This document shows, piece by piece, positions 6,877 through 45,193 of a stretch of DNA of 64,000 nucleotides (within the stretch, counting starts at the first letter, position 1; every line of letters begins with the position of its first letter). Below the pieces are notes generated by a model. That model made no database searches. It was not told where the DNA came from and saw nothing but the letters and a program-made list of their open reading frames with translations. Origin of the DNA: a bacterium (GTDB lineage: Bacteria; Electryoneota; JAOADG01); NCBI GenBank assembly GCA_963681965.1, contig OY820579.1, positions 3,552,001 through 3,616,000 on the forward strand, written 5' to 3'. The position numbers and the translations under genes are program-made.

Positions 6877-7529
6877 TGGAGTTCACTTATCCGCTTAAGT
6901 TCAGTCGTTGGTACCGGTTACTGCCATCACTGGTACTGAACTTCACTACATCGGAAAGAGAACTATGGCTGACATTCGACGACGGTCCGGTCAGTCGAGA
7001 CACCGGTTGGACACTATCCGAACTAGCACGCCATTCGATTAAAAGTACGTTCTTTGTTCTGACTGATCGCGCAATCGGGAATAAGTCGCTGCTGACCGAT
7101 GCGCTTGCGGCAGGACATGAAATCGGTCTTCATGGCTGGCATCATCGTCGGCAATTATTATCAAATCCCACTAAAACCTATGCCGAATGGTGCGATTCGC
7201 GCAATCGTATCGAACAAATGCTGGGCTGTCCCATTCATCGGATCCGTCCTCCCTATGCCGTACCGCCTCTAGCGATTTGGTCGCAACTGATTCAAGCCGG
7301 GATGCGTCCGATATATCTCACTTGGATGTTGGGGGATTTTATCGCGACATTACCGGTATCGGCGACTGTCGACAATTTGATGCCGAAGTTGCGACCCGGA
7401 GATATTTTATTAATGCACGATGGTGGACCGGCACCTGAGACATTTCGAAAAATGCTGCCGCTTTTACTGGAACAAGCTGTGGATAGTGGTTGGCGGTTTA
7501 CCATACCCGACGAACGACTTTTACAATGA
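6876..7529 (+). CDS. Polysaccharide deacetylase (NodB/CE4)
   Basis: LTFDDGP, HGWHH, RPPY and LMHDG motifs intact. Confidence 0.9.
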   Translation: MEFTYPLKFSRWYRLLPSLVLNFTTSERELWLTFDDGPVSRDTGWTLSELARHSIKSTFFVLTDRAIGNKSLLTDALAAGHEIGLHGWHHRRQLLSNPTKTYAEWCDSRNRIEQMLGCPIHRIRPPYAVPPLAIWSQLIQAGMRPIYLTWMLGDFIATLPVSATVDNLMPKLRPGDILLMHDGGPAPETFRKMLPLLLEQAVDSGWRFTIPDERLLQ

Positions 7530-8662: not shown

Positions 8663-8744
8663 TTTATTGTGAGATTTGTTCCTGATAGAGTAGAAACGCA
8701 GAACGGAACCAATTGGTAGATTATCTCAAATCGAAGAATATAAA

Positions 8745-8771
8745 AACAAGGGTACCATCGGTACCCTTGTT
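8745..8771. terminator. Probable bidirectional intrinsic terminator
   Basis: Perfect 12-bp stem AACAAGGGTACC-ATC-GGTACCCTTGTT between convergent genes. Confidence 0.8.
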
Positions 8772-8797
8772 CAGTTTCTTACTGATTTAATTTTTCT

Positions 8798-9403
8798 CTA
8801 CGCCTTCGTTACGACAAATTCGCCATATTCATCGCCGCATTCAATCCCTTTGGTCTGAACGCACTGGAATGTACGCAAACCCGATTTTCCGTCGGGATCG
8901 TAGGCACCACCATACGCCAGATCCATAAAAGCGGCTGCGACACCACGGATCATGTAGGCATTCATCTTGGACGAAGTACCATAACTTACGGTATCGGATT
9001 CATAATAGTCGTAAGCACGAACCACCATCTTTTCACCCGGGATCAATTCGACAATTTCGCTCTTTGCCCAACCCCAAGCGGTGAATACGGCAAACGCACC
9101 ATGTAGAATATCTTCCGGAACTTTCTCAATCATCGGTGCGACAACTGATTTCCACTCATCGGACGTTATGATACCGTACCCAGTATGATACCCGCATTCA
9201 TGTGCAGCGTTTTCCAATAGAAATTCCGCAGCCGGTAACATTTCGGTTCCAACTTTGCGCGTCAGACGGTCGGCAAACCCATTCCAGAATGTCGCGGGAA
9301 GTCGATTGACAAATACATTAAATCCGGGGATCAAACCGTCTGAGTTTTCCTGTACTTGAATTTTCGACAAGGCTTCAATTACTCTTTTACGATCGATAGC
9401 CAT
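8798..9403 (-). CDS. V4R-like domain protein
   Basis: AWGWAKSEI helix-strand pattern and C-terminal CVQTKGIECGDEYGEFVV, typical of the V4R/H-NOX/Bet3-like fold. Confidence 0.65.
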   Translation of the reverse strand: MAIDRKRVIEALSKIQVQENSDGLIPGFNVFVNRLPATFWNGFADRLTRKVGTEMLPAAEFLLENAAHECGYHTGYGIITSDEWKSVVAPMIEKVPEDILHGAFAVFTAWGWAKSEIVELIPGEKMVVRAYDYYESDTVSYGTSSKMNAYMIRGVAAAFMDLAYGGAYDPDGKSGLRTFQCVQTKGIECGDEYGEFVVTKA

Positions 9404-30620: not shown

Positions 30621-31619
30621 ATGTTCCAACGCACTTTGAGTAAAAATATCTTCAGAAAAATCCACCTCCACTGGTTACTTCCGGTTCTTCCGGTGCTATT
30701 CCTGTTCACAATCGTCGGTTTTTGCTTTGCCGAAACTGCCCCGGCTGTTGCCGATACAGCCAATGTAACGGCACCCGCTGTTGCCGATACAGCCAAGGCA
30801 GCAGCACCTGCTGCCACTGAAGCAGCCAAGGCAGCGGCACCTACGACTTGGTTCAAAATGGAACGGCTCAACGTGGCGGTTTTTCTGATTATCATCTCAG
30901 TCCTCGTGCTTTCATTCCTGTTTATCGCGCGTAGCGGCAAACCACTGCATCTGCGGCGCATTGCCGGTCTGGACGCACTCGACGAAGCGATCGGTCGCTC
31001 GGCAGAACTTGGTAAACCGGTTCTGTTTGTGCCGGGTATCGGCGATGTCAGCAGTATTCAGACGATCGCGGCACTGGCAATTCTCGAGCGGGTCGCCAAA
31101 GAAACGGCAACCTACGACGTCGAACTCAATGTTATGACCAATTACCCGTTGGTCATGTCCACTGCACAGGAAACTGTCAAGCAAAGCTATACGGCAGCCG
31201 GACGCCCCGATCTGTTCAATCCGAACAACATCCGTTATGTCACCGACAATCAGTTCGCATTCGCTTCGGCAGTCGCCGGACACATGGTTCGCGAACAGAC
31301 GGCGGCGAATTTCCTGCTGGGTGAATTTTACGCCGAATCGCTGATCATATCCGAAGCGGGTAACTCGACGGGTGCCATTCAGATTGCCGGAACCGCGCAA
31401 CCGCACCAACTACCATTCTTTCTGGCATCGTGCGACTATACCCTGATGAGTGAAGAGCTGTTCGCTGCCAGTGCGTATCTGACCCGCGAACCGATCCTGC
31501 TCGGTACAATTCTCGGTCAGGACTGGTCGAAAGCGGTGTTTGCGGCGATCATGATCGGTGGTATCATCGCGGCTGTGATGGGCTACGAGGGCTATGTACA
31601 CTGGTTTGACGTCCAGTAA
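30621..31619 (+). CDS. DUF6754-type membrane protein
   Basis: Signal peptide, APAVADTA repeats, LRRIAGLDA.DEAIGR..ELGKP and CDYTLMSEELFAASAYL. Confidence 0.75.
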   Translation: MFQRTLSKNIFRKIHLHWLLPVLPVLFLFTIVGFCFAETAPAVADTANVTAPAVADTAKAAAPAATEAAKAAAPTTWFKMERLNVAVFLIIISVLVLSFLFIARSGKPLHLRRIAGLDALDEAIGRSAELGKPVLFVPGIGDVSSIQTIAALAILERVAKETATYDVELNVMTNYPLVMSTAQETVKQSYTAAGRPDLFNPNNIRYVTDNQFAFASAVAGHMVREQTAANFLLGEFYAESLIISEAGNSTGAIQIAGTAQPHQLPFFLASCDYTLMSEELFAASAYLTREPILLGTILGQDWSKAVFAAIMIGGIIAAVMGYEGYVHWFDVQ

Positions 31620-31684
31620 CGCGATCAATCGCTCGGTAATTCGTTTCCGATTCCTAATCTAACAGATAAAAATTACTGGTTCTT

Positions 31685-32299
31685 ATGAGAGATCTAATCG
31701 CTTTTGTTATATGCGGCATCACGGGTTTGATCACGCTGTTCGCATTTTTCATCAACTCACCCACTGCGACTGCGGTACAGGATGGTCTCGATAACTGGAT
31801 CATCATTATTAGCAGCTTCAGCTTTCTGATGGGTGGTCTCAGTGTGCTGTTCAATCATATCAGCCGCGTCAGCCAACGCTCGGAAGGGTGGGGTTTCAGT
31901 ATCGTACTGATCGTCTGCATGCTGAGTATGGCAGTCCTTGGGATCATCGACTATAGCCAATCCGGCATCTTCATGTGGCTGTTCAAGAATGTCCAGAACC
32001 CGATGCAATCGACCATGTTCGCGTTTCTCGCATTCTATGTCGCCAGTGCCAGTTATCGCGCATTCCGCGTCCGGAACTGGATGGCGACGCTGCTGTTTAT
32101 CTCGGCGGTGATTGTGATGATCGGATCGGTACCGGTCGGCGAAGCGCTCTGGTCGAAGACGGCAACGATTGCCCAGTGGATTTTGAATGTCCCGTCATTG
32201 GCGGCTCAACGTGCGTTGCTGATCGGTTCGGCACTCGGTATGGTAGCAACCGGTTTGAAGACGCTGCTCGGAATTGAACGATCATGGTTGGGGCGCTAA
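31685..32299 (+). CDS. Polytopic membrane protein (DUF6754 cluster)
   Basis: About 6 TM helices; STMFAFLAFYVASASYRAFR and LLGIER. Confidence 0.8.
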   Translation: MRDLIAFVICGITGLITLFAFFINSPTATAVQDGLDNWIIIISSFSFLMGGLSVLFNHISRVSQRSEGWGFSIVLIVCMLSMAVLGIIDYSQSGIFMWLFKNVQNPMQSTMFAFLAFYVASASYRAFRVRNWMATLLFISAVIVMIGSVPVGEALWSKTATIAQWILNVPSLAAQRALLIGSALGMVATGLKTLLGIERSWLGR

Positions 32300-32300
32300 G

Positions 32301-33137
32301 ATGACAAAATTCCTTGAAAAACTCGGTTCGCTTCCGCGCTGGTTCGTTTATATCACACTGAGTCTCGGTGTGGCACTTCCTTTGATCTTCCCGTTGAAAT
32401 TGCCGGTGATCGTGAGTCCAAACAGTAAAGCGATCTACGACTATATCGAAGCGCTACCCGATTCGGCAGCAGTGCTGATCGCATTCGATTTCGATCCGAC
32501 CTCGATTCCGGAATGTCAACCGATGGCGGAAGCGTTAGTCCGTCACGTGATGAAACGCAATCTCGCCTTGATCGCCTACACGAATATGCCGCAAAGCGGA
32601 CCGATCACCGACCGCGTGATCACGCCACTGGCGAAGGAATTCAATAAAGTCAGTGGGAAAGATTATGTCAATCTCGGGTACAAACCGGGTAATACGATCC
32701 TTCTGATGTCCCTCGGCAATTCGTGGACGAATTCGTTCCCCACCGACCAGAATGGGAACCCTACCCCAGAGATGCCGATTATCAAACGCTACTCGAGCTT
32801 CCGGAAACTGTCGTTTATGGTTGATATTGCCCACGGCGCGACAGTCGACGACTTCATCAGTATCGGTCGAGCGCAATACGGTGTGCCGATGGCGTGCGGT
32901 GTCACCGCCGTCAGTATTCCCGGATACAAAGCCTATATTCAATCCGGTCAATTGGTCGGTATGCTGGGTGGATTGAAAGGTGCAGCCGAATACGAGAAGA
33001 TGGTCGGAGCACCGGGAAAAGCCACCATCGGTATGGATGCACAATCGATGGCACATATCGTCATTGTGGGATTTATTTTGTTGGGCAACCTTGCGTTGAT
33101 CCCCAAGTGGTTGAATCGTCGGCGGGGAGGAAACTGA
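32301..33137 (+). CDS. Membrane-anchored protein with a soluble alpha/beta domain (DUF6754 cluster)
   Basis: N- and C-terminal TM helices; DYVNLGY and SGQLVGMLGGLKGAAEYE. Confidence 0.8.
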   Translation: MTKFLEKLGSLPRWFVYITLSLGVALPLIFPLKLPVIVSPNSKAIYDYIEALPDSAAVLIAFDFDPTSIPECQPMAEALVRHVMKRNLALIAYTNMPQSGPITDRVITPLAKEFNKVSGKDYVNLGYKPGNTILLMSLGNSWTNSFPTDQNGNPTPEMPIIKRYSSFRKLSFMVDIAHGATVDDFISIGRAQYGVPMACGVTAVSIPGYKAYIQSGQLVGMLGGLKGAAEYEKMVGAPGKATIGMDAQSMAHIVIVGFILLGNLALIPKWLNRRRGGN

Positions 33138-33138
33138 T

Positions 33139-33732
33139 ATGAATATGTTCGGCACTTGGATTGGTGCAATTTTAACGCTGATTTTGTTCAGCTTCCTCTA
33201 TAAAGACAATCCGCTGTATCGATTGGCGGAAAATATCTTCGTCGGAATTTCCACCGGTTACTTTATCGCGCTGGAATGGCAGAATGTTCTGAAGCCAAAC
33301 GTCGTCGAGAAAGTGATGGCGGGTAACTGGGTACCGATTATACCGGCGATATTGGGTGTAGTGTTGTTGCTGCAGCTATCGCAGAAATACGGCTGGATCG
33401 CCCGCTATTCGATCGCGTTGTATATCGGTGTCGGTGCCGCGTTGAATATGGTGTTGTACACTCAGGGGCAGCTCATTCCGCAGATTCAAGGCACGATGCT
33501 GAAGTTGAACAGCATCTCGAATATCATCATCATCGTTGGAACGATCACTTCGCTAGCGTATTTCTTCTTTGCGATCGAGAACAAGACGTTGGGGCGGGTT
33601 TCGAAGATCGGGATAGGGTTCCTGATGATCAGTTTCGGTGCGGCGTACGGCACTACTGTGATGGGGCGTGTCTCACTGCTCATCGCTCGATTCGACTTCC
33701 TGATCAACGACTGGATCCGCGCGATGTTTTAG
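33139..33732 (+). CDS. Polytopic membrane protein (DUF6754 cluster)
   Basis: FSFLYKDNPLYRLAE and FGAAYGTTVMGR; operonic spacing. Confidence 0.8.
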   Translation: MNMFGTWIGAILTLILFSFLYKDNPLYRLAENIFVGISTGYFIALEWQNVLKPNVVEKVMAGNWVPIIPAILGVVLLLQLSQKYGWIARYSIALYIGVGAALNMVLYTQGQLIPQIQGTMLKLNSISNIIIIVGTITSLAYFFFAIENKTLGRVSKIGIGFLMISFGAAYGTTVMGRVSLLIARFDFLINDWIRAMF

Positions 33733-33765
33733 ATTTCTAGCTTCTCGGAATGTTTTTGATTTCAA

Positions 33766-33800
33766 GTAGGGGCGGACCCCCGTGTCCGCCCGTTTTTTTT
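33766..33800 (+). terminator. GTAG-REP hairpin acting as terminator
   Basis: GTAG-GGGCGGAC-N6-GTCCGCCC followed by G and T8, downstream of the operon. Confidence 0.7.
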
Positions 33801-33914
33801 ATCTTATTTTTATCCTTTCCCTTCTTTTTTTATTCTTATTCTTTTCATTTCTTTCTTACATCTTTCATTCTTTCCCCAATTTCCATTCCCTATCCCCTAA
33901 TCCCTATCTTGTTC

Positions 33915-34055
33915 GTAGGGGCGTATGGCATACGCCCAATCTTGTATCTTGTTCAGTCATTGCGAGGAATGCGCCGAAAGGCGCATGACGTGGCAACCGC
34001 GCAGCGCTCACCGAAGGCAATCTCTCTTTTTCGTAGGGGCGTATGGCATGCGCCC
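33915..34055. repeat. REP cluster (two GTAG-type hairpins flanking a GTCATTGCGAG-type palindrome)
   Basis: GTAGGGGCGTATGGCAT(A/G)CGCCC at 33915 and 34033; GTCATTGCGAGG...GGCAATCTC between them. Confidence 0.7.
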
Positions 34056-34065
34056 AATCTTTTTT

Positions 34066-34444
34066 CAGTACTGCCGATCTCCGAATCGGCGCTTTTATCA
34101 TTTCCAGCTAGCTTTGAAAGAAATCCAAACAAACAAAAGAATGCCCAATCGGAGTTGGGCAGTACTGCCGATCTCCGAATCGGCTCTTTTATCGGTTTCA
34201 GTTGGCTATTAAATGAAAACAAACAAAAGAAAAAGATGCCCAATCGGAGTTGGGAAGTACTGCCGATCTCCGAATCGGCTCTTTTATCGTTTTCAGTTGG
34301 CTTTTAAATGAAAACAAACAAAAGAATGCCCAATCGGAGTTGGGAAGTACTGCCGATCTCCGAATCGGCTCTTTTGTCGTTTTCAGTTAGCTTTAAAAAG
34401 AAAACAAAAAAAAAAAACGCCCAATCGGAGTTGGGCAGTACTGC
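34066..34444. repeat. Tandem array of four 90-95 bp REP-doublet (REPIN-like) units
   Basis: Unit starts at 34066, 34160, 34255 and 34345, closing at 34436. Each unit is AGTACTGCCGATCTCCGAATCGGC...GCCCAATCGGAGTTGGG(C/A). Confidence 0.85.
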
Positions 34445-35045
34445 GGAAGCGGCTTTTGTATCCTTTTTGATGTCGCAACAATATCAACCATTCACTCTTC
34501 TCGGCGAGACAAATACAGAACCCTTCACAAACAATATTTATTCTTATTTAATAATATATTATAACAAACTCTCACACGATGTTTATTTTTTCACAATACT
34601 TCCGATTCCGATTTATTTTCGTTTCTTGCTGGTTCGCACTTGCATCTCTTTTTTTTTACTACTTTGTAAGTAGCCGTATCAAATTGCACTGCTTCAGCAG
34701 CACGGTATTCCAGAATTTGATAATGATAATGATTTCAAAGTTGTTTCGCGGCTACCGAACTGCACCGAACGGCACATCCGATACGTGTCTTCGACGAACC
34801 ATGAACTGAAACCGGGGTTTTGCTTCGCGCACTGCAACAGTACAGAATCAATACCTTCCTACTCTCGAAAGGAATGAATCATGAAAAAGCATCTGATCTG
34901 GATTACGCTTCTCCTCGCGTCGATTTTTGTGTATTTTGGTTGCTATAGCACCGACAATTCGAACAAGAACGGAATGAGTCCGAAAAACCATTCCGGCAAG
35001 GGTGGTGCTCAAATTGCTTCGGTTGGATTGCCGGAAGGTTGGGAT
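34345..35045 (+). repeat. Left arm copy 1 (REP doublet + leader + first 55 codons)
   Basis: Near-identical to 37554..38256 and partly to 39488..39610 plus 40831..41034. Confidence 0.9.
34640..34737 (+). promoter_or_regulatory. Putative promoter with poly-T spacer and downstream Fur-like box
   Basis: TTGCAT-ctcT9ac-TACTTT; GATAATGATAATGATTTCA at 34719-34737 (15/19 to the E. coli Fur consensus). Confidence 0.45.
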
Positions 35046-35783
35046 GCAGTTGGCATTATTCACAACTGTGTGATGGAGTATGTAGACAGCGCACTATGCG
35101 TAGATTATAAAAACAACTGGAATGATTCAATATTGTCTTCAAATATCCGTAATTATGTAAATACATATATTAAAAATAACATAACTTTTGATACTATATT
35201 TTACACTTGTATGGATACAATGAATCTAAAATCATTGCACTCAAAACAAGAATTTATTGATTTAATAGATTATTATCGATCACAAAATTATATTACTCAA
35301 CAAGAATCTTTGTATAGTCACAGGTTTATTGACATGCTATTTAATGAAAAAATGAATGATACCTTATTTGACGACAGTCTTTTAGTCTTTAAAAATGATC
35401 TAGAGAAATTATCTTGGAAAGATGATGAGTTATTTCTCCCAACTATATTATCAGTCGCAATGCATAGTTGGGAATATGCAAAACATCGCGGTAAATTTAA
35501 CCCGCAACCAGTTGAAGATACTGTTATTATTCCCATTTCATTAGATCCTGGTTTATTAAGTTCGGATCTTTGGGGAGCAGCAGCTGGCTTTGCAGCTGGT
35601 AGAACCTTTGGATGGATTGGAGAACAAATTATCATTAATAAAGGTTTGGCTGCAATACCTGGTTTTGGACAAGGAATGGTTATAATCGGTTCAGCATGGG
35701 GTGCTGGCTATAATTCAGCCAAATACAATGCTTGGTCAATAACGACAGGTCAATGGTTAATCTGGCCACTCGTAATCTGGTAA
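34881..35783 (+). CDS. Lipoprotein with glycine-zipper hydrophobic C-terminus (putative toxin, unit 1)
   Basis: Lipobox YFGC (Cys21), GxxHN motif and C-terminal SDLWGAAAGFAAG...GSAWGAG. Confidence 0.8.
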   Translation: MKKHLIWITLLLASIFVYFGCYSTDNSNKNGMSPKNHSGKGGAQIASVGLPEGWDAVGIIHNCVMEYVDSALCVDYKNNWNDSILSSNIRNYVNTYIKNNITFDTIFYTCMDTMNLKSLHSKQEFIDLIDYYRSQNYITQQESLYSHRFIDMLFNEKMNDTLFDDSLLVFKNDLEKLSWKDDELFLPTILSVAMHSWEYAKHRGKFNPQPVEDTVIIPISLDPGLLSSDLWGAAAGFAAGRTFGWIGEQIIINKGLAAIPGFGQGMVIIGSAWGAGYNSAKYNAWSITTGQWLIWPLVIW

Positions 35784-35927
35784 TTTCTTTACTTTCTACA
35801 ATAGTGATTTGCTTGATAATGTGCAAGAAGATTCTATCATTTAGTGCTGAAGATTCTTTTTGTCCAGAAGTCAAGTTTATTCTTCCTGAAACTTTTCTCA
35901 ATTTCTTCGAATGGAAGCAAGTGAAAT

Positions 35928-36227
35928 ATGAGCACAATCTTCATTTATGCTATTACTGTACTGTTTATTTCTGTTGCTATTCTATTAACATTTCACTTTT
36001 TTATGAGAAATAAACGTACATCTTATTCAGTCGAAGCATTATTACATAGCAATAAAGTAAATACTTTTATTCTATTATATATTGCTTTATGGCTAATAAT
36101 TGCATCCGATCATGTTGATATCGGCGTTTTCGGCTTTCGGTATCATGGATTATTTTACGTTTGTTGCCTTGGTTTATTGATTGGAATTGCTGATCTTATC
36201 TATAAGTATATCAATAAAAATAAATGA
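35928..36227 (+). CDS. Small 3-TM protein (putative immunity)
   Basis: Hydrophobic 99 aa; paralog of 37003..37311 (KVNTFILL, SDHVD, FGF). Confidence 0.75.
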   Translation: MSTIFIYAITVLFISVAILLTFHFFMRNKRTSYSVEALLHSNKVNTFILLYIALWLIIASDHVDIGVFGFRYHGLFYVCCLGLLIGIADLIYKYINKNK

Positions 36228-36400
36228 TCCTCAATCGATCATTCTGACCAAGAGTTTGTATTCAATTTCAGTAACTGATCGATATCGGCGGAACACACGA
36301 TTCGCCTTGATCAAATTCCAGTCCCGGAAATTAATCGTAATATTTCCGGATTGATAGGCATACAAGAGGAGGGGCAACTCGAGCTACCTCTGAGGACACC

Positions 36401-36733
36401 ATGTTGTCGATCAATCTCAGTTCATTTGAAATTAGCTTGATAGCTGGAATTTTTGTGCTATTTTTGAATTTTCTTAAAATTCTGACGGTCGAGCTGCATC
36501 AAAATGAAGGATTCAAAATACTTCCAATTTTTGGCATATCGTTTACGATTGGAGGGTATTTCAGTCTTATCTTTCTTGTTCTTACAACAATGACATCACA
36601 AAAGGTAATGATCGAAGATTTATTTTTAGCTACCTTTTGCGTAGTCACATTATGTTTCATAGTCAATGGAATTAGATCCTTAGTACATTTTAAACAAACC
36701 ATTAAGGCTTCACATTCTCTTAAATCGAATTGA
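36401..36733 (+). CDS. Small 3-TM protein (putative orphan immunity)
   Basis: GAGG RBS, three hydrophobic segments, followed by the cassette hairpin. Confidence 0.65.
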   Translation: MLSINLSSFEISLIAGIFVLFLNFLKILTVELHQNEGFKILPIFGISFTIGGYFSLIFLVLTTMTSQKVMIEDLFLATFCVVTLCFIVNGIRSLVHFKQTIKASHSLKSN

Positions 36734-37002
36734 AGAGGATTTATTCAAAGTCGAAATAATGAACAAGGCGGACCATTCGATCCGCCTTGATCCATTTTTC
36801 AATTTCTCGTTCCTCTATTACCGATATAGATATTGAATTGGAGATATCTAAAAACAATTTTACTTGACCCAAAAATATACTATCTTAACAACACAGTTGT
36901 TTTTTAACAAGACATCTTAACACCAAGTTAATGATTTATTATCTGAAGTAGCAGATTATGTATCCAAAGGCAATTTACTAAGATCGGTAGCTCGGAGATA
37001 CG

Positions 37003-37311
37003 ATGAATTCATTCACAATATATATCTACGCATTCGGGGTACTACTTCTTTCTGTTCCATTGTTGTTTGTATTCCATATTCTCACAAGAAATGTGCATTC
37101 AGCCTTCTCAACCGAAGTTCTGTTGCATCGATACAAAGTAAATACTTTTATTCTTCTGTTTATAATATTATGGTTGAGCCTCGTTTCCGATCATGTCGAC
37201 ATGAATTCGTTCGGTTTTCAATTTCACGGTTTCTATTACATCTGTTTTCTTGGATTCTTAATTGCACTGGCTGATCTATTTTTAAAACATTTCAATAAAA
37301 AACGGGATTAA
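37003..37311 (+). CDS. Small 3-TM protein, paralog of 35928..36227
   Basis: GGAG RBS; aligns with the paralog over its full length. Confidence 0.75.
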   Translation: MNSFTIYIYAFGVLLLSVPLLFVFHILTRNVHSAFSTEVLLHRYKVNTFILLFIILWLSLVSDHVDMNSFGFQFHGFYYICFLGFLIALADLFLKHFNKKRD

Positions 37312-37377
37312 TCAACAGTCTATCTTAAATCTAAGGTGAAAGATCTTACGAAATCTACGAGTCTGGAAAACTCAAAC

Positions 37378-37503
37378 AAGGCGGACCATTCGATCCGCCT
37401 TGTTCATTTTTCCCACGATCGAAGTTGTTCGCTACCGCTTATGGCACTCGACACAACTCATGTTCTTGTGGCAGGCAAAGCAATTTTCGTGCAGCGCAAC
37501 CTT
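37378..37503. repeat. Right arm copy 1: hairpin + duplicated 3' end of the cytochrome c gene
   Basis: Matches 43505..43628; minus strand encodes KVALHENCFACHKNMSCVECHKR*. Confidence 0.92.
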
Positions 37504-38256
37504 GACCCCAGCTTCTTTTCGGAGGGGCGTCTGGCATATGCCCGATCTTTTTTCAGTACTGCCGATCTCCGAATCGGCTCTTTTGTCGTTTTCAGTTAGC
37601 TTTAAAAAGAAAACAAAAAAAAAAAACGCCCAATCGGAGTTGGGCAGTATTGCGGAAGCGGCTTTTGTATCCTTTTTGATGTCGCAACAATATCAACCAT
37701 TCACTCTTCTCGGCGAGACAAATACAGAACCCTTCACAAATAATTATTTATTCTTATTTAATAATATATTATAACAAACTCTCACACGATGTTTATTTTT
37801 TCACAATACTTCCGAATCCGATTTATTTTCATTTCTTGCTGGTTCACACTTGCATCTCTTTTTTTTTTACTACTTTGTAAGTAGCCGTATCAAATTGCAC
37901 TGCTTCAGCAGCACGGTATTCCAGAATTTGATAATGATAATGATTTCAAAGTTGTTTCGCGGCGACCGAACTGCACCGAACGGCACATCCGATAGGAGTC
38001 TTCGACGAACCATGAACTGAAACCGGGGTTTTGCTTCGCGCACTGCAACAGTACAGAATCAATACCTTCCTACTCTCGAAAGGAATGAATCATGAAAAAG
38101 CATCTGATCTGGATTACGCTTCTCCTCGCGTCGATTTTTGTGTATTTTGGTTGCTATAGTACCGACAATTCAAACAAGAACGGGATGAGTCCGAAAAACC
38201 ATTCCGGCAAGGGTGGAGCTCAAATTGCTTCGGTAGGATTGCCGGAAGGATGGGAT
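37504..38256 (+). repeat. Junction + left arm copy 2
   Basis: GACCCCAGCTTC junction, single REP doublet, leader and 55 codons shared with copy 1. Confidence 0.9.
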
Positions 38257-38898
38257 AAAGCTGGGATCGATCACAACAAAGCAATGGAATATGCATATAA
38301 TTTTTTTAAAGACAAAATAGATTCAACATGGATAAATGATTCAATAATAAATGTAACGAAAAATATTATGATGAGATATTTTATTGATTCATTAAAATAC
38401 GATTCAAATAATTTATATTTCAAATTCGACAATATATTATTCAACAAATACACACTTGATACAGTAATAAATAATTTAAATATATTACTAGATAGCAATT
38501 TAATGACAACACGAGAGTATAATTATTCTTTGAGAATGTTTAATTTTTTATTCGATAGCTCGGTTACTGATAGTATACTTGGAGATAGTATTAATTTATT
38601 TATAAATGACTTAAACAAAATCGAATGGAACAACGATGAAAAATTATTATTTGTTTTTTCAAGTATAATGAAATATAGCTATGAATTTCACACTTCACAT
38701 AATAAAGACGGTAAATTGGATCGATTCAGTGTCAAAGAGTTAATAATAGCTGACATTCTTGGTGGTGTCGTTGGCGCGGTAATAGGAATTCGCGGTGGCT
38801 GGGTTGCAATGCTTGGATGTGGTGCGTTTTTTGCTTTCTTTTTTTCATTCCTAGATTTTGCTTTGCAAGTAATACGGGATAATGGATTGTTTTGGTAA
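38092..38898 (+). CDS. Lipoprotein with glycine-zipper hydrophobic C-terminus (putative toxin, unit 2)
   Basis: First 55 aa identical to the 34881 protein; C-terminal ADILGGVVGAVIGIRGG. Confidence 0.8.
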   Translation: MKKHLIWITLLLASIFVYFGCYSTDNSNKNGMSPKNHSGKGGAQIASVGLPEGWDKAGIDHNKAMEYAYNFFKDKIDSTWINDSIINVTKNIMMRYFIDSLKYDSNNLYFKFDNILFNKYTLDTVINNLNILLDSNLMTTREYNYSLRMFNFLFDSSVTDSILGDSINLFINDLNKIEWNNDEKLLFVFSSIMKYSYEFHTSHNKDGKLDRFSVKELIIADILGGVVGAVIGIRGGWVAMLGCGAFFAFFFSFLDFALQVIRDNGLFW

Positions 38899-38913
38899 CT
38901 GATAGAGGCAAAT

Positions 38914-39273
38914 ATGAACTGGACTATAATATTCTGGGTATTTATTACGATCCAATCAATCTTATTACTATTTATCGTTTACTTCATCGATAAAATCATC
39001 TCGTTGCCGAAGTACTTTCCCTTTTTCAAAACTAAGATAACAAAAAGCTTAGTGAAAAATCGGGAGTCAAACGATTCGATCCAAAAAGATCGAAATGTTT
39101 ATCGATTTACTTGGTTATATACAACACTCTGGTTCGGTGCGTTCTCGCCAGCACATTTACTTCCGAAATGGGGAGAAAACGCTGGAATTTTCGTGATGCT
39201 TTTTTCTCTATGTGTTTATTTATTTGCACTTTTCATATATCGAAAGAAAACAAATACCGCTCAAACGGAGTAA
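38914..39273 (+). CDS. Small 3-TM protein (putative cognate immunity, unit 2)
   Basis: Starts 15 bp after the lipoprotein gene, GAGG RBS, hydrophobic. Confidence 0.72.
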   Translation: MNWTIIFWVFITIQSILLLFIVYFIDKIISLPKYFPFFKTKITKSLVKNRESNDSIQKDRNVYRFTWLYTTLWFGAFSPAHLLPKWGENAGIFVMLFSLCVYLFALFIYRKKTNTAQTE

Positions 39274-39311
39274 TCAGTCACTTTCCAAATCCAATTTTTT
39301 TTTAAAAACTA

Positions 39312-39437
39312 AAGGCGGACCATTCGATCCGCCTTGTTCAATTTTCCCACGATGGAAGTCGTTCGCTACCGCTTATGGCACTCGACGCAACTCATGTTCT
39401 TGTGGCAGGCAAAGCAATTTTCGTGCAGCGCAACCTT
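39312..39437. repeat. Right arm copy 2: hairpin + duplicated cytochrome 3' end
   Basis: Matches 43505..43628 and 37378..37503. Confidence 0.92.
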
Positions 39438-39610
39438 GACCCCAGCTTCTTTTCGGAGGGGCGTCTGGCATATGCCCGATTTTTTTTCAGTACTGCCGAT
39501 CTCCGAATCGGCTCTTTTGTCGTTTTCAGTTAGCTTTAAAAAAAGAAAACAAAAAAAAAAAACGCCCAATCGGAGTTGGGCAGTACTGCGGAAGCGGCTT
39601 TTGTATCCTT

Positions 39611-40830
39611 TGAAACCTCTGATTTAATCCCACGTTTTTGATGATTATCTCGTATTGCCGTTAGAGCCTATAACGGAGTTTACAATGTCCCTCGTTCCCT
39701 CTACCCGCGAATGGATTACCTTCGGTGAACTAGACGATCAGTGTCGCCGTCACAAGAAGAGCATGCTTGATGAGATCGATCGGTTGATCGATTTTCGTCC
39801 GATCGAGTCGCTGCTAATGCGGATGTACCGCGGCACCCGCGGTCGCCCCCCGATCCCGCCGTTGATGTTGTTCAAAGCGTTGCTGTTGGAACAATGGTAC
39901 GGTCTGTCGGATGTACAAGTGGTGCAGGAGATCCACGACCGACGCAGCTTCGAACGGTTTATCGGTTTTACCGTTCGCGATTATCTGTTGGACGATTCGA
40001 CCCTGGTTCGGTTCCGTCAACGGTTGCGCGACTTTCGTTACGAGAAGGAATTGTTCAATGAATTGAACCGTCAGTTGGCTTCGTTCGGTCTATTCGTTCG
40101 CAGTTGTACACTGGTCGACGCGACATTGGTCAAGGGTGCCACGACTGCGGGCTCCACCCGTGCCGACGGTACTCCGGTCGACCCCGATGTAACCATCACG
40201 GTCCGCAAAGATAAACCGGTCGACGGGATGAAAGTGCATGTTTCGATGGATCATGAAAGCGAGCTGATCGAAGCAGTCGACTTGACATCGAATATTGTTC
40301 ACGACTCGCAGGTGTTCGAGGCATTGCTTCCCGACGACACCGGTGGCGTGTTTGCCGACAAGGCGTACGATTCGACGGCACACCGCAACTTGATTCACGC
40401 CCGCCACTGGTACGACGGCATTCTTCACAAGGCAAGACGCAATCGTCGCTTGACGGAACATGAGCGATGCCGCAATCGATCCAACTCACGGATCCGAAGC
40501 CGGATCGAAGCCAAGATGAACGACTTGAAGCGGTGGGGACACCTCGCGCGTTTGCGCTATTACGGTATCGAACGGAATCTGACACAAGTCTACTTTACCG
40601 CCATGGCAGTGAACTTGAAACGGGCCTGCAAACTGGTGCTGGTAACCTGAAAAACGATAAATCGGAGAGTGAACTCTGCCCAAGCAGCAGAAATCACCGA
40701 AAATCATCAAAAAATCCAACCAAAATCGACCCCAATTACACTAAAATTTGCAATTCATTTCGAAAATCGTCGAAATCAGACTGATGAGGCAAAAGAGAGT
40801 GATACAAAAGTGATTTTTTCAGAGGTTTCA
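39611..40830 (+). mobile_element. IS5 family insertion sequence (complete)
   Basis: 19-bp inverted repeats TGAAACCTCTGA(TTT/AAA)AATC; CTT duplication, confirmed against the empty site in arm copies 1 and 2. Confidence 0.92.
39685..40650 (+). CDS. IS5 family transposase
   Basis: GRPPIP, QWYGLSD, LVDAT, ADKAYDS and RSRIE...K...LRY motifs. Confidence 0.93.
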   Translation: MSLVPSTREWITFGELDDQCRRHKKSMLDEIDRLIDFRPIESLLMRMYRGTRGRPPIPPLMLFKALLLEQWYGLSDVQVVQEIHDRRSFERFIGFTVRDYLLDDSTLVRFRQRLRDFRYEKELFNELNRQLASFGLFVRSCTLVDATLVKGATTAGSTRADGTPVDPDVTITVRKDKPVDGMKVHVSMDHESELIEAVDLTSNIVHDSQVFEALLPDDTGGVFADKAYDSTAHRNLIHARHWYDGILHKARRNRRLTEHERCRNRSNSRIRSRIEAKMNDLKRWGHLARLRYYGIERNLTQVYFTAMAVNLKRACKLVLVT

Positions 40831-41405
40831 CTTTTTGATGTCGCAACAATATCAACCATTCACTCTTCTCGGCGAGACAAATACAGAACCCTTCACAAAT
40901 AATTATTTATTCTTATTTAATAATATATTATAACAAACTCTCACACGATGTTTATTTTTTCACAATACTTCAGAATCCGATTTATTTTCGTTTCTTGCTG
41001 GTTCGCACTTGCATCTCTTTTTTTTTACTAGTTTAGGAATAATTTCAATAATCATCTTTAATTATATACTCAATTATTCACTTATCAGGAGTGTGTTATG
41101 GTAAAGAATATTAACACCAATGCAATTTCTGCATTATCGATTGGATCATTCGCACAGGTTGCATCTTGGTTTGATTATTTAGCCGGTCCGAAAATTGATG
41201 ATTTCGGTCTATGGAAATCTGGTAACTTTCTTGTGGATCACTTCGAAACTATTTACGAAACAATCGAGGATTTTGTTCTTTTAAAATCAATTAAACTTTA
41301 CGACTGCAATCAAAATAGTGCTACTATTTCTTATTTAGCAGACGTTCCATCCAATACTTCGTATGCAGAATTTCAATTCAACGGAGTATTAGAAGCTACT
41401 ATGTC

Positions 41406-42698
41406 TGAAGTGGTCCCGTTTTCCTGGACAGTTTGTTAGTTAGATTGCTTTGCCCGATATTTTGATAGCAAGTATGGAGTTGAAGATGTCGGGAATACGA
41501 CGGACATTATCGCCTGATTTCAAGGCGAAGGTAGCATTAGCCGCACTCAAGGGTGATAAGACAGTATCTGAACTATCAAGTCTATATCAAGTTCATCCGA
41601 ACCAGATCAGTCAGTGGAAGAAGCAGCTTTTGGATCATGCTGCATCGGTATTTGGCAAAACTGAATCGTCAGGAAGTGAAGAAGTAGATCTTAAGGAGCT
41701 GCGCGCCAAGATCGGCCAGTTAACGATGGAAAACGATTTTTTAGCAAAGGGGCTCAGTCGCTTGGGCGTTCTGAGCGTGAAGCGCTGATCGATCCGGGTG
41801 CCCGTTTACCGTTGGTTCAGCAGTGTTCTTTAATCAAGGTTCCACGCAGCAGTTACTACTATCGCCCTGTTCCGCTTGATTCGAACAATTTGATGCTGTT
41901 GCGAACGCTGGATGAGCTTCACCTGAAGGTTCCGTTCTACGGTGCCCGTAAACTGGTGGTGGAGTTATCGAAGCAGGGTATCGATGTTGGTCGGAAAAAG
42001 GTTCGTTCCTTGCTACGCATCCTCGGTCTGGAAGCATTGTACCGCAAGCCGCGTACGACGGTTCCTGACAAGGAACACAAGATTTATCCGTACTTGCTTC
42101 GCGACTTGACGGTTGATCGCGCGAATCAAGTATGGGCGACCGACATCACGTACATCCCACTGGCAAAGGGTTTTGTGTACCTGGTGGCGGTGATCGACTG
42201 GTTCAGTCGCAAGGTGTTGTCGTGGCGGTTGTCGAATACGCTGGATACGCATTCCTGTGTGGAAGCATTGAAGGATGCGTTGTCGAAGTATGGGAAGCCT
42301 GAGATCTTCAACAGCGATCAAGGGTGTCAGTTTACCAGCGTCGCATTTACGGATGTTTTGAAAGAGGCAGGCGTTCGGATCAGTATGGATGGTAAAGGTC
42401 GGTGGATGGATAACCGTTTTGTCGAACGATTGTGGAAGTCGTTGAAGTACGAGGAAGTATACTTGAAAGGGTACGATTCAGTTCGCATTGCAGAGCGCAG
42501 TATCGGTGAATATTTTTTGTTTTACAATGCGGAGCGTTCCCATCAAGCTTTGGACTGTCGCACCCCAGATGAGGTCTACATCGATAGTCTTAGCAAATTT
42601 TCTTGTCAGGCAGCTGCCTGACAAGAAACAGCAGAAAGTGGGCAGTGCAATCTAACTAAGATTCGCACAAAACTGTCCAAACGGAGGGTACCACCTCA
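41406..42698 (+). mobile_element. IS3 family insertion sequence (complete)
   Basis: TG...CA ends with imperfect IRs (TGAAGTGGTCCCGTTTTCCTGGACAGTTT / AAACTGTCCAAACGGAGGGTACCACCTCA); GTC target duplication. Confidence 0.93.
41486..42621 (+). CDS. IS3 transposase OrfAB (programmed -1 frameshift)
   Basis: OrfA 41486..41788 (HTH); slippery T TTT TTA at 41737-41743; OrfB with [15 protein letters not shown] and DNRFVERLW. Confidence 0.92.
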
Positions 42699-43229
42699 GT
42701 CTGAAAGCTGGGATGATGTTATCAATACTATGTCCGTTAAACTAACATCACCACAAGACATAAACGCTGATTTAACAATTATAATGTCAAATTATTCCAA
42801 ACAATCGAGTGATGTTACGATCTACTTTGCAAACAATGTATATTCATTTACAATGAATTTCGCTAACCCAGCTGTAAATACCGAACTACTTGCATGGAAA
42901 CAAGCAATCATGAATTACCATTCTCAAATAGTTGTTAATTCTATTACATTGGAAGCTTGTATGCCAAGCTTGGGCACTATGGGGAATACTGGTTGTACTG
43001 TGGATAATATAAGTCCGAAAGATTGTGCATGTCTTGCTGCGTCTTGTTTAGTTGGAGCAGGAGTTGGCACTGGTGTTTTGATTATTACAAATGGATTAGC
43101 AGCAGGTTGGGGACAATTAGTTGGAGCTGTGGGTGGCTTCTCTGCGATTGGCGCTGCCAACTGGGCAGCTCAAAAAGCATATGATATCAATGTTGGGCGA
43201 GTAAGACTAATCCAGCATTAGGAGTCGTT

Positions 43230-43439
43230 ATGAAAAAAAAATCTGTAGTACTATATCTCTTAGCTTCATTGATTCTCTCTGTTTATTTTCTTTTTTCGGG
43301 AGCGAATCAATGTTTTAAATCGGGTATGGACTTCGCAGTGTTAACTGCTATCACGATGTATATTTGTGGATTCGCTGGTACAATATTGAGTGCTGCATCA
43401 CTGTTTAATTTTGTTCTCAAGAAAAATAGTAGTAAGTAA
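43230..43439 (+). CDS. Small 2-TM protein (putative cognate immunity, unit 3)
   Basis: AGGAG RBS overlapping the upstream stop; two hydrophobic helices. Confidence 0.7.
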   Translation: MKKKSVVLYLLASLILSVYFLFSGANQCFKSGMDFAVLTAITMYICGFAGTILSAASLFNFVLKKNSSK

Positions 43440-43504
43440 AGCCGAATCCTAAATTCATCGCGAAAATATCAAATCAAGTCTATTTACTCTGATAATTTTA
43501 CTAC

Positions 43505-43526
43505 AGGCGGACCGTTCGGTCCGCCT
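43505..43526. terminator. Hairpin between convergent genes (source copy of the cassette hairpin)
   Basis: AGGCGGACCG-TT-CGGTCCGCCT. Confidence 0.6.
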
Positions 43527-43556
43527 TGTTCATTTTCCCACGATGGAAGTCGTTCG

Positions 43557-43964
43557 CTACCGCTTATGGCACTCGACGCAACTCATGTTCTTGTGGCAGG
43601 CAAAGCAATTTTCGTGCAGCGCAACCTTCGATTCCGAGATGTCGATCGGTTTCACTTCCTTCTGATGGCAATGCTTGCAACTCTCCACATGGTGGCAACG
43701 AATACATTCCAATTTAAAATCGGTGACGTGTTTCTTGTGATTGAAGATGATCTGCGTTCCGCCAAGATACTTCGTCTGGAAAACATATTCATCGGGAATC
43801 GGTCGTACCCGATTCTGCCAGTCGTATAGAATCGACGTCGAATCGAGTTTCTCTTTGACTTCCCCGGTCGAGCCGTGTTTCGATTCGGCGGGGGTCGATG
43901 GACTGGTTTCGGCAATCGCAATCACGAACATTGCCAATAGAACAAACAGAATAATGCGTTTCAT
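43557..43964 (-). CDS. Periplasmic multiheme class III (c3/c7-like) cytochrome c
   Basis: Signal peptide, FNHKKH and four CxxCH motifs (CIRCH, CKHCH, CFACH, CVECH). Confidence 0.9.
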   Translation of the reverse strand: MKRIILFVLLAMFVIAIAETSPSTPAESKHGSTGEVKEKLDSTSILYDWQNRVRPIPDEYVFQTKYLGGTQIIFNHKKHVTDFKLECIRCHHVESCKHCHQKEVKPIDISESKVALHENCFACHKNMSCVECHKR

Positions 43965-43984
43965 TGTATCCTCACACTCTTCGA

Positions 43985-45193
43985 TTAATGCGTTGTCTCA
44001 TGCGTCAAATGCGCGTCCAGCACGTCCGCTTCGATCCCTTCGTGTTCGCTAAGTTCCGGGAACACCGGGAAGAATCGGGCAATAAAGTAAAATACCAGCA
44101 TCCCGCAGGTGAGCAGGAACAGCGAAATGGAAACTTCCGTATAGGCAGGATAGTAGTTCCAGTGCGAATTGCGCAACATCCCTATCCAACTGACATTGAA
44201 CCGGTTATAGAGAATGCCGGCAACGACCATGAAACTGGCAGTGAACAACCATTTGGGATTCATGCGCAATTTCTTGATTGCGATAATGCCAATCGGAATG
44301 ATCAGCAGCGCCATTTCTAAAATGAAGTGGATGCTTTCGAATTCGCCGGAAAATACTTTATTCGCAACGCCGCGAACGAACAGGTCCTGAATCTTGATAC
44401 CGGTATAGACGATCAAAGCGACTTGGAGAAAATACGCGAGTTCGATCAAAATCGGCGTCTCGAGACCGCGCTTGAAAACCCTCGCGCTGAATGTCGATTC
44501 GACAATCACCATCGCCGGACCGACTGTCACTGCCGACAAGAAGAATAGCAGCGGAATGATCGGCGTGTACCATAATGGATGCAGTTTTTCCGGGACAATC
44601 AAGAAAACCGATCCGAGTGACGACTGGTGCAATGTCGAAAGCAACACACCGGCAATAACCAGCGGAATCGTAATTCGCCGAAGAATTTTCAGCGGCTTCA
44701 CCAGATTGAATTTCTCGAGCACCACCGGAACGAATTCCAGAAAGAGCACGGTGAGGTATAGCATCACGCACCAGGCGACTTCAAACATCACCGAGTGTGG
44801 ATTGCCCATGATCATCGGATGCCAGACATTGAACCACTTACCAAGGTCGTACAACAATCCGACTGCCACCAGCAGATAGCCGAGAAACGCGGTCAAAACC
44901 GTTGGACGCACAATTGCATGGAATTTCTCGTAGCCGATGACATACACCAGAAAGCAAAGCGTGAACCCGCCTGCCGCCAATGCAACACCACCGACGACAT
45001 CGAAACTGATCCAGAGACCCCAGGGGAAATTGTCGGCAAGATTCGTGACCTGACCCAGTCCGAAGATGAACCGCTTGAGCGTCAGGATAGTACCTTGAAT
45101 CAGAATGAAAATAAAAATCAACCAAATAAATTTGCGCTTGAAGCTCATTCCGCGAATTTCATCGCGAATTGCAGTAAGAATCGTCTGAATCAT
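43985..45193 (-). CDS. hybB: NrfD/PsrC family membrane subunit (HybB/HmcC-like)
   Basis: PWGLWISFDV..GVALAAGG, DLG, SVMFEVAWC and LSTLHQSSLG. No hydrogenase genes in the window, so the symbol reflects family resemblance only. Confidence 0.8.
   Translation of the reverse strand: MIQTILTAIRDEIRGMSFKRKFIWLIFIFILIQGTILTLKRFIFGLGQVTNLADNFPWGLWISFDVVGGVALAAGGFTLCFLVYVIGYEKFHAIVRPTVLTAFLGYLLVAVGLLYDLGKWFNVWHPMIMGNPHSVMFEVAWCVMLYLTVLFLEFVPVVLEKFNLVKPLKILRRITIPLVIAGVLLSTLHQSSLGSVFLIVPEKLHPLWYTPIIPLLFFLSAVTVGPAMVIVESTFSARVFKRGLETPILIELAYFLQVALIVYTGIKIQDLFVRGVANKVFSGEFESIHFILEMALLIIPIGIIAIKKLRMNPKWLFTASFMVVAGILYNRFNVSWIGMLRNSHWNYYPAYTEVSISLFLLTCGMLVFYFIARFFPVFPELSEHEGIEADVLDAHLTHETTH

Follow-up and report, generated by a model that had tools for sequence, protein, structure and literature searches.

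Three units with shared arms

We analysed a 64-kb stretch of the chromosome of an Electryoneota bacterium (GenBank assembly GCA_963681965.1, contig OY820579.1, positions 3,552,001 to 3,616,000; hereafter the window) and describe an array of three head-to-tail units at its positions 34026-43628. The locus consists of three autonomous expression modules, each with a promoter region, a 5' untranslated region (UTR), a gene for a large envelope protein that ends in a glycine zipper, between one and three genes for small membrane proteins, and a terminator. Self-BLAST of 33001-44500 and a repeat finder, together with alignment of the junctions, place the units at 34026-37503 (unit 1, 3478 nt), 37504-39437 (unit 2, 1934 nt) and 39438-43628 (unit 3, 4191 nt, including 2512 nt from two insertion sequence (IS) elements). 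Every unit has a middle part, here called the payload, between a left and a right arm; in unit 2 these three parts span 38294-39307, 37504-38293 and 39308-39437, respectively. The units, their left arms, the IS elements and all payload genes are on the forward strand.

The left arms of the three units are mutually 95-98% identical. That of unit 1 (34346-35082) comprises the last unit of a cluster of repetitive extragenic palindromes (REPs), a leader, the 5' UTR and the start of a lipoprotein gene (~55-67 codons), and it matches 37555-38293 of unit 2 at 96.1% across 739 nt. In unit 3, an IS5-family element (39612-40830) interrupts the left arm. On one side of this element, 39438-39611 matches 37504-37675 of unit 2 (97.7%) and its part 39489-39611 matches 34346-34466 of unit 1 (98.4%, 123 nt). 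On the other side, the remainder (40831-41034) matches 37672-37876 of unit 2 (97.6%, 205 nt), and its similarity to units 1 and 2 stops within the promoter-like block, upstream of the start codon.

In every right arm, a terminator-like hairpin precedes the final 72 nt of a cytochrome c gene (43557-43964, reverse strand). The right arm of unit 3 (43500-43628) is the native one, with the terminator and 3' end of the gene itself; copies of the cytochrome fragment end unit 1 (37432-37503, within the right arm at 37378-37503) and unit 2 (39366-39437). Right-arm matches are 96.9% identical between 39308-39437 and 43500-43628 (130 nt) and 95.2% between 37379-37503 and 43505-43628 (125 nt). Three copies of this 126-nt repeat of hairpin and 72-nt cytochrome 3' end thus bound exactly two inserts. 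Both internal junctions can be aligned base for base through GCAACCTT and, across the join, GACCCCAGCTTC. The junction-spanning piece 37378-37675 matches 39312-39611 at 97.3% across 300 nt, and ~196 nt are identical at both junctions. E-values of the arm matches range from 1e-51 to 0, far past chance.

A first-pass annotation, drawn up by a model from the sequence letters and open reading frames (ORFs), had described three head-to-tail units with shared arms, two essentially identical internal junctions and a right arm of hairpin plus cytochrome 3' end in every unit, and our analysis bears out each of these observations. It had also described the same left arm in each unit. This holds for the 95-98% that is shared, and it has to be qualified for unit 1, with its four REP copies and a divergent outer REP, and corrected for unit 3, the left arm of which is interrupted and stops earlier.

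The cluster of REPs at the left edge (33904-34465, forward strand) contains GTAG-type hairpin REPs at 33919-33937 and 34037-34055 and four tandem REP-doublet units of ~95 nt (~34066-34447), where units 2 and 3 have one each. The outermost GTAG-type REP of unit 1 is just 84-85% like those of units 2 and 3. A 721-nt block of this cluster gave 312 BLAST matches across the genome, which indicates that the REPs are genome-wide and not specific to the array. Rfam returned one sub-threshold match to a microRNA family on the REPs, which we take as chance. Two weak matches to Y1 transposases of the REP-associated (RAYT-like) type (27-30 bits) lie outside the window, at 526789-529974 of the chromosome, a sparse showing for a genome with hundreds of REP copies.

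Unit 1 contains an additional hairpin of the arm type (36764-36789) that lacks a cytochrome fragment; 36762-36800 is 94.9% identical to 37375-37412. The native terminator hairpin of unit 3 (43505-43526) differs from the copies at 37379-37400 and 39312-39335 by two A>G changes, and a hairpin scan gave nine stem pairs and a 4-nt loop for the native hairpin and eight pairs and an 8-nt loop for the unit 2 copy.

The host genome is a single closed contig of 4,244,867 nt, with no N and 47.4% G+C. The arms are repeats of 126-739 nt, too long for short reads to span, and the first-pass annotation had named misassembly as a point to check: the assembler might have concatenated alternative strain haplotypes of one locus. 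We consider this very improbable. Five public sequencing runs from two studies contain the stretch, and four of them were compared as contigs, in which rare variants are not visible. In run X1, the payload 1 contig (2508 nt, 35083-37483) has a depth of 16.3, the payload 2 contig (38187-39370) 18 and the payload 3 contigs 18.4 and 21.1, beside 16.6 for the 40.7-kb contig on the cytochrome side. The corresponding values in run X2 are 17.6, 18.9, 21-26 and 21.6. Alternative haplotypes would show fractions summing to the flank depth; payloads at full flank depth indicate that all three are on every chromosome, with the proviso that X1 and X2 are possibly the assembly's own data. Arm bins have ~1.2-1.9 times the payload depth, as would be expected from a collapse of near-identical arm copies in contigs, and the join of cytochrome interior to REP, which simple alternative haplotypes would lack, has depth in those bins. 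The same proteins are also present on a second record of 4,339,467 nt. In favour of a mis-join, no contig bridging a junction is among the 32 of 240 contig pieces listed, which we attribute to the ~196 nt that the two junctions have in common. The contig depths in X1 and X2 speak against a haplotype mis-join.

The two larger runs, X4 and X5, cover the array (35083-43900) unevenly. X5 has depth in 24 of 30 bins; payload 1 is mostly uncovered, payloads 2 and 3 are covered in part, and the cytochrome side is present. Low depth, filtering or a related strain with other unit content are possible causes, among which contigs cannot discriminate. Two contig joints were rejected as variants of the locus. 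A joint from 40829 to 41406 in X1 and X2 is best explained by copies of the IS5- and IS3-family elements that lie 564 nt apart, in the same order, near 1.28 Mb, and a joint that appears to go back 3174 nt is an artefact of a layout starting at 35083.

Large lipoproteins and small membrane proteins

The large gene of unit 1 (34881-35783) encodes a 300-aa lipoprotein with a type II signal peptide (...VYFG before the lipobox Cys), a helical domain and a C-terminal glycine zipper (lipoprotein 1; profile E 1.1e-80). The large gene of unit 2 (38092-38898) encodes a 268-aa protein, the first 55 residues of which are identical to those of lipoprotein 1 (lipoprotein 2). The two proteins are homologous over their full length and 43-47% identical overall, the range reflecting the tool used. 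Runs of GxxxG occupy residues 232/236/240 in unit 1, 224/228/232 in unit 2 and 119-142 of the C-terminal fragment in unit 3. An AlphaFold2 model of lipoprotein 2, built from a 21-sequence alignment, is all-helical (pLDDT 82, pTM 0.74) and ends in a C-terminal helix of ~50 residues (214-263). The ESM Atlas returned unnamed clusters only, and a word-based homologue search with lipoprotein 1 found just the two window proteins.

Exhaustive HMMER searching of 1.84 billion representative proteins identified a family of 31 proteins at E<=1e-3, 14 of them at E<=1e-10. Most members are lipoproteins of 200-290 aa with a W..GI.HN motif; the helical domain has invariant W, S and D in the alignment, and the C-terminal zipper follows the pattern D..GA..G...G....G...GA..SA (consensus D-x-x-G-A-x-x-G...G). 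Besides these lipobox proteins there are longer exported forms: in three members of 454-485 aa, the module is preceded by an N-terminal extension of ~240 aa. Acidic residues right after the lipobox Cys are common in the family, and we take them to resemble the surface-export signal of Bacteroidota lipoproteins. Glycine-zipper Pfam families were matched below threshold by a few of 21 members (PF13488, E 0.048, two members; PF13441, E 0.071, two; PF05433, E 0.32, one), none of them among the window's own proteins.

The linker HSGKGGAQIASVGLPEGWD..GI.HN (34983-35072, residues ~35-64 of both lipoproteins) is ~30-35% identical to the repeat of giant multihaem c7-type cytochromes (P0013, P0016). It has non-cysteine residues at the CxxCH positions and may be a haem-less relic or a chance resemblance.

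The lipoprotein family has a patchy distribution. It occurs in eight of 79 genomes of the phylum, and was not found in the three closest relatives (G001-G003) among them. These and all further counts of phylum genomes are descriptive, as kin are not independent. A degenerate motif scan of genome contigs yielded one locus (L023), the lipoprotein and small protein of which match those of locus L005 in their start and end residues and in length. Within the host genome, we identified a third family member at 3257123-3259338, unlinked to the array and 32-33% identical to the array lipoproteins at the protein level. It belongs to a fourth module outside the window (L004; chromosome positions 3252000-3264000, module at ~4882-9350 of that interval), and the leader and N-terminus of this module are 68% identical to the array arm. 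Its lipoprotein gene is split after ~65 codons by an IS5-family copy. Downstream lie small hydrophobic ORFs (7405-7746, 8657-8971 and 9160-9348 of the interval) and a 292-aa ORF (7746-8624).

Genes for small membrane proteins follow each large gene of the array. Unit 1 encodes a 99-aa protein (35928-36227; profile E 4.4e-28) of a family that we call immunity-like, a 110-aa small hydrophobic protein with no link to that family (36401-36733) and, after the additional internal hairpin, a second immunity-like protein of 102 aa (37003-37311; profile E 3.8e-27). This last gene is a paralogue of 35928-36227 (E 1.6e-34, 70% nucleotide identity) and has no toxin-like gene of its own. In unit 2, lipoprotein 2 is followed by an immunity-like membrane protein of 119 aa (38914-39273; profile E 5.6e-27). 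The small protein of unit 3 (43230-43439, 69 aa) is hydrophobic and has no link to the family.

A small hydrophobic ORF also follows the lipoprotein gene in seven of the eight loci from other phylum genomes. All-against-all comparison joins 11 of 15 small proteins into one family. In its aligned members the first hydrophobic segment is followed by a basic loop, the second contains an invariant Trp, and the tail is basic. Profile searching gave seven genes of this family in the genome, against three lipoprotein genes: three are in the array (35928, 37003 and 38914), two in the paralogous locus and two are unpartnered, with no family lipoprotein adjoining (chromosome positions 3741542-3741922, forward strand, E 4.5e-14; 4061311-4061673, reverse strand, E 1.2e-9). 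The first of the unpartnered genes is followed by a different lipoprotein of 317 aa. Across the phylum, the small family is present in 11 of 79 genomes, including seven of the eight with the lipoprotein family; four genomes (G003, G019, G069 and G076) have it alone. A surplus of small over large genes, genomes with the small gene only and a patchy spread form the pattern expected of immunity genes. The conserved pairing of large and small genes, together with the orphan small genes, fits a putative toxin with its immunity gene.

Unit 3 has a different and interrupted payload. An IS3-family element (41406-42698, 1293 nt; orfA 41450-41788, orfB 41812-42621; Pfam HTH_Tnp_1 and rve) separates a 5' part of its large gene (41098-41405, 102 codons, no signal peptide evident) from a 3' part (42702-43221) that ends in a glycine zipper. 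Since the two frames are in register on either side of the element, they were once a single gene of ~275 codons. This element ends in TG...CA, is flanked by a 3-nt GTC target duplication and has ten genome copies that are 91-100% identical. The IS5-family element in the left arm (1219 nt, transposase 39655-40650; Pfam DUF772 and DDE_Tnp_1) is one of six identical genome copies, another of which splits the unlinked paralogous lipoprotein gene. Without both elements, unit 3 measures ~1.7 kb. The first-pass annotation had overlooked these 2.5 kb of IS DNA, which split the large gene. Both elements probably landed in unit 3 after the array had formed.

Two of the six identical IS5-family copies (39612-40830 in the window and 3257319-3258537 of the chromosome) fall in glycine-zipper modules of this 4.24-Mb genome. 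A target preference for AT-rich DNA and tolerated inactivation are possible causes of this clustering.

The unit 3 protein has no N-terminus in common with lipoproteins 1 and 2 and is at most alike in its zipper (hhalign probability 21%); a word-based homologue search with its C-terminal fragment matched the fragment alone. The AT-rich middles of the three units had initially been described as all different. This stands for unit 3, the payload of which is without detectable homology, and fails for units 1 and 2, which are homologous. The accompanying description of a large gene with a Gly-rich C-terminus followed by one or more small membrane genes in each unit proved correct, and the modules are autonomous. 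Payload G+C is 30-37%, against 47.4% for the genome, and the module lies below its flanks in G+C in six of the eight other loci.

The cytochrome c gene beside unit 3 encodes a protein of 135 aa with four CxxCH motifs and is the last gene of an operon for an Fe-S protein, NrfD and the cytochrome; its orthologues in G001-G003 are 60-71% identical. On the other side of the array lies a four-gene operon for membrane proteins (30621-33732) that starts with a DUF6754 protein, the only one of the four with a Pfam match. Two paralogues of this operon's last gene are present in the genome (~1972766 and 3677597-3678235), and a search of 41 genomes matched it in 19, this one among them; the copy at 3.675 Mb has REP clusters of the array type in its vicinity. 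The interval between the two operons, which the first-pass annotation had proposed comparing across relatives, has no counterpart in G001-G003: the locus is absent, the DUF6754 and cytochrome operons are not adjacent and no empty site can be defined.

Arms, payloads and the origin of the array

Several observations implicate the arms as substrates of homologous recombination. First, the boundary between arm and payload is abrupt. Units 1 and 2 have 16 differences in 700 nt of arm (34346-35045, 97.7% identity) and 34 in the next 75 nt, and identity is ~55% from codon 56 onward. All six substitutions in codons 1-55 are synonymous. The shared arm includes ~535 nt of non-coding leader upstream, in which a promoter-like block (~34637-34720) and the 5' UTR after it are the most conserved part, kept in the L004 paralogue too. 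Conservation of the 55-aa N-terminus as DNA, together with the ~535 nt upstream, marks it as a recombination arm and not a protein domain. The first-pass comparison with the conserved N-terminus and variable C-terminus of polymorphic toxins therefore does not hold, as only a signal peptide and linker are shared and the remainder is one homologous family.

Second, the arms are mosaic. Among the 328 left-arm columns common to the three units, units 1 and 3 agree at four variable columns, units 2 and 3 at three and units 1 and 2 at four, and the pattern flips from agreement of units 2 and 3 to agreement of units 1 and 3 between 34606 and 34621. The right arm has units 1 and 2 in agreement within the hairpin and units 2 and 3 beside the cytochrome gene. 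Such incongruence within 126-330 nt points to repeated recombination or conversion between arms. Third, the L004 paralogue serves as a calibrator: its arms are 68% identical in nucleotides beside 32-33% protein identity, which indicates that the array arms are much younger than the payloads. Finally, the lack of detectable homology of the unit 3 payload beyond the zipper implies that one payload or more has been exchanged while the arms stayed the same.

On this sequence evidence, the explanation that we favour, with somewhat better than even confidence, is a tandem duplication that was maintained and diversified by homologous recombination between its arms and stacks bacteriocin-like toxin/immunity modules. 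One end of the duplication would lie 72 nt inside the cytochrome 3' end and the other at the upstream REP cluster, giving the junction of GCAACCTT and GACCCCAGC. Unequal crossing-over between arms may then have produced the second, identical junction. Homologous recombination between arms, as gene conversion or as exchange with other alleles, would have kept them 95-98% alike with different payloads between them; the payload of unit 3, at least, would have been swapped in, and the two IS elements would have entered this unit later. Since each right arm is a true cytochrome 3' end, gain or loss of a unit by arm recombination leaves the cytochrome gene intact. We considered whether a GCAGCGC microhomology, shared by the cytochrome join-point and the DNA that lies upstream of unit 1, had caused the duplication, and dropped the idea because identity to the cytochrome gene runs 8 nt past it.

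The large proteins are putative toxins and the small ones putative immunity proteins. We propose that the former act as bacteriocin-like surface or envelope proteins whose glycine-zipper helix would insert into the membrane of competitors, and that the latter may confer cognate immunity in the producer's inner membrane. Different toxin/immunity pairs in two units could mean that cells losing a unit are killed by their siblings, and a duplication that is unstable by itself would thereby gain stability.

Integration at the 3' end of a gene classically leaves a copy of that end at each junction, as is seen here, and exactly two inserts lie between the three 126-nt repeats. Units 2 and 3 might accordingly be small integrative cassettes, inserted by a remote recombinase at a site overlapping the cytochrome 3' end, as in the accretion of islands at tRNA 3' ends. 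The genome has 11 tyrosine-recombinase genes elsewhere that could supply such an enzyme. We nevertheless judge this origin improbable. Neither a PF00589 tyrosine recombinase nor a PF01797 Y1 transposase was found in the 64-kb window, in any unit or beside them, and the nearest PF00589 match is >480 kb away. The inserts include 370-790 nt with homology to resident DNA that lies upstream of unit 1, which homologous recombination needs and site-specific insertion does not, and the arm variants are mosaic along their length. Arm sequences were also not found elsewhere by genome BLAST or exact contig scans. A right-arm 41-mer and a left-arm 40-mer had no matches in metagenome contigs, and the left-arm 40-mer had none in genome contigs, from which records of identical or near-identical genomes may be excluded; these exact scans likewise revealed no conspecific genome or metagenome contig with the arms. 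The initial statement that the window holds no integrase or RAYT gene is right for PF00589 and PF01797 and omits the two IS transposases inside unit 3. Its companion proposal, stacking by recombination between arms, gains from the mosaic arm variants and the swapped unit 3 payload; a dedicated cassette mechanism is unsupported.

Mosaic arms are equally a product of gene conversion, and the units could be old tandem paralogues of an ordinary envelope operon, with a doubly anchored lipoprotein and a small membrane partner, in which conversion has kept the promoter, signal-peptide and terminator segments alike and antagonism plays no part. The C-terminus of lipoprotein 2 is hydrophobic enough for a plain membrane anchor, and the sub-threshold matches to the glycine-zipper envelope families PF13488, PF13441 and PF05433 are in keeping with such a role. 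We hold this reading to be unlikely. No paralogy is detectable for the payload of unit 3, although the same arms enclose it, and gene conversion from identical duplicates alone would not give 43% protein identity in the payloads beside 97% in the arms. An ordinary operon also sits poorly with the occurrence of the small family without the lipoprotein (two genes here and four genomes), with the patchy distribution of the lipoprotein family (8/79, with none in the three closest relatives) and with the low G+C of the payloads.

Several results weigh against the favoured account of duplicated and diversified toxin/immunity modules. The large proteins have no above-threshold match in Pfam, NCBIfam or PADLOC that would indicate a toxin domain, no PDB sequence match below E 0.2 and no convincing fold match (best Foldseek E 0.16; best VIA Z 5.2, noise level for helical proteins). 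A lipid anchor combined with a C-terminal hydrophobic helix equally fits a doubly anchored structural envelope protein. One of the eight other loci (L008, in genome G004) has no small partner gene seen within 1.5 kb, and G004 has no match to the small family. IS elements have broken the unlinked paralogue, which is one of three lipoprotein genes of the family in this genome, and the unrelated payload gene of unit 3, so that selection on these two genes may be weak. With respect to the origin of the array, no source was found for the 9 nt GACCCCAGC at each junction, and the absence of a bridging contig among the pieces listed was noted above. Concerted evolution inside a single genome could have produced the like arms of units 1 and 2 with no import of alleles from other strains.

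A more far-reaching version of our proposal combines two elements: an undescribed class of surface-lipidated, glycine-zipper bacteriocins that damage membranes and are paired with small membrane immunity proteins, in a phylum that has been little studied, and a toxin arsenal built without a recombinase. In the latter, portable arms would come from a tandem duplication anchored in the 3' end of a housekeeping gene, alleles of other strains would be added to the stack and not replace one another, and toxin addiction would freeze every new unit. We offer it as a tentative possibility. Among the open-access papers covered, no description was found of this family or layout. If the large proteins are toxins, they would form a new family among the few lipoprotein or glycine-zipper antibacterial toxins (the literature search yielded only SitA and Cdz), and the array would be a compact, testable case of whole toxin/immunity units accumulating by plain homologous recombination. 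If they are not, the locus would still illustrate cleanly how regulatory arms evolve in concert around envelope genes that diverge fast. The mechanism requires no new enzymology in either case.

Comparison with known systems

The locus works like known stacked toxin/immunity loci and is a member of none of them. Polymorphic toxins combine a conserved trafficking N-terminus with unrelated C-terminal toxins; here only a 55-aa signal peptide and linker is shared, and Pfam, NCBIfam, PADLOC and the PDB gave no recognised C-terminal toxin class. The small membrane genes that follow each large gene here, and the lipoprotein gene in seven of the eight other loci, may correspond to the immunity gene directly downstream in such systems. 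In the orphan arrays of cdiA-CT/cdiI, rhs-CT and mafB-CT, the extra modules are 5'-truncated and promoterless, and they are expressed after recombination into the main gene. The array resembles these in having several alternative modules in a row and shared stretches that permit homologous module swaps. Unlike them, every unit is complete with promoter region and terminator, the downstream arm derives from a housekeeping gene and the putative toxin belongs to an unclassified lipoprotein family.

Several mobile-element architectures share single features with the array. Integrons and other cassette arrays are not matched, since the window has no PF00589 gene and each unit has its own promoter-like block. 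The repeat at the junctions consists of a terminator and part of a gene and is not an attC-like palindrome, a comparison for which attC models were not run. Elements that integrate at gene 3' ends leave direct repeats of the target 3' end, as seen here, and encode their own integrase, which the units lack; transposases occur in the units only within the two IS elements, each with ends and a target duplication of its own. The REP part of the left arm, possibly of the type of REPs and bacterial interspersed mosaic elements (BIMEs), has dispersed copies (312 matches) and hairpins, and the RAYT matches in the genome are only two and weak. REP-mediated tandem duplications and concerted evolution offer a further likeness, in the join-point at the edge of a REP cluster, the identical junctions and the mosaic arms. 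They differ from the array in that its other join-point lies inside a coding sequence and its units now hold different genes.

Among envelope proteins, the glycine-zipper lipoprotein families PF13488, PF13441 and PF05433 (SlyB-like) are not reached at their gathering scores. Pore-forming colicins are water-soluble bundles of ten helices with a buried hydrophobic hairpin, and their adjacent immunity proteins, of ~100-180 aa (a size similar to that of the small array proteins) with three to four transmembrane segments, reside in the inner membrane. The model of lipoprotein 2 is all-helical, with no colicin among its structural matches (best Z 5.2). Unlike colicins, the array proteins are chromosomally encoded and lipidated, show no detectable relation in sequence or fold, and come without receptor-binding or translocation domains and without a lysis gene.

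The Cdz system of Caulobacter is alike in the extended GxxxG zipper of the putative toxin. CdzC and CdzD are surface-associated, contact-killing glycine-zipper bacteriocins, and the immunity protein CdzI has three predicted transmembrane segments (PMC5380434). The same source describes CdzC and CdzD as proteins of 84-86 aa with RTX-like leaders and linked type I secretion, which together form a two-protein toxin (PMC5380434). The large proteins described here differ from these in being Sec/lipoprotein-type proteins of 268-300 aa with a helical domain of ~160 aa before the zipper, and no unit has a transporter gene.

The SitA toxins of Myxococcus xanthus have nuclease-type C-termini and are delivered by TraAB outer-membrane exchange, and homologues of them were found only in Myxococcales (PMC5562445). 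Unlike SitA, the large proteins have a glycine zipper, a small putative membrane immunity protein and no nuclease domain, and the two groups have no sequence relation; TraAB was not searched for. The Mx-alpha regions that carry SitA are prophage-like, with ~100 kb of such material per region (PMC5562445), and the units described here measure 1.9-4.2 kb. The array and the SitA/SitI loci share lipobox toxins and an immunity gene directly downstream, both putative in our case, and three tandem related units, each with a toxin/immunity cassette of its own, and for the Mx-alpha units, three in tandem, the same source argues that toxin addiction retains the unstable repeats (PMC5562445).

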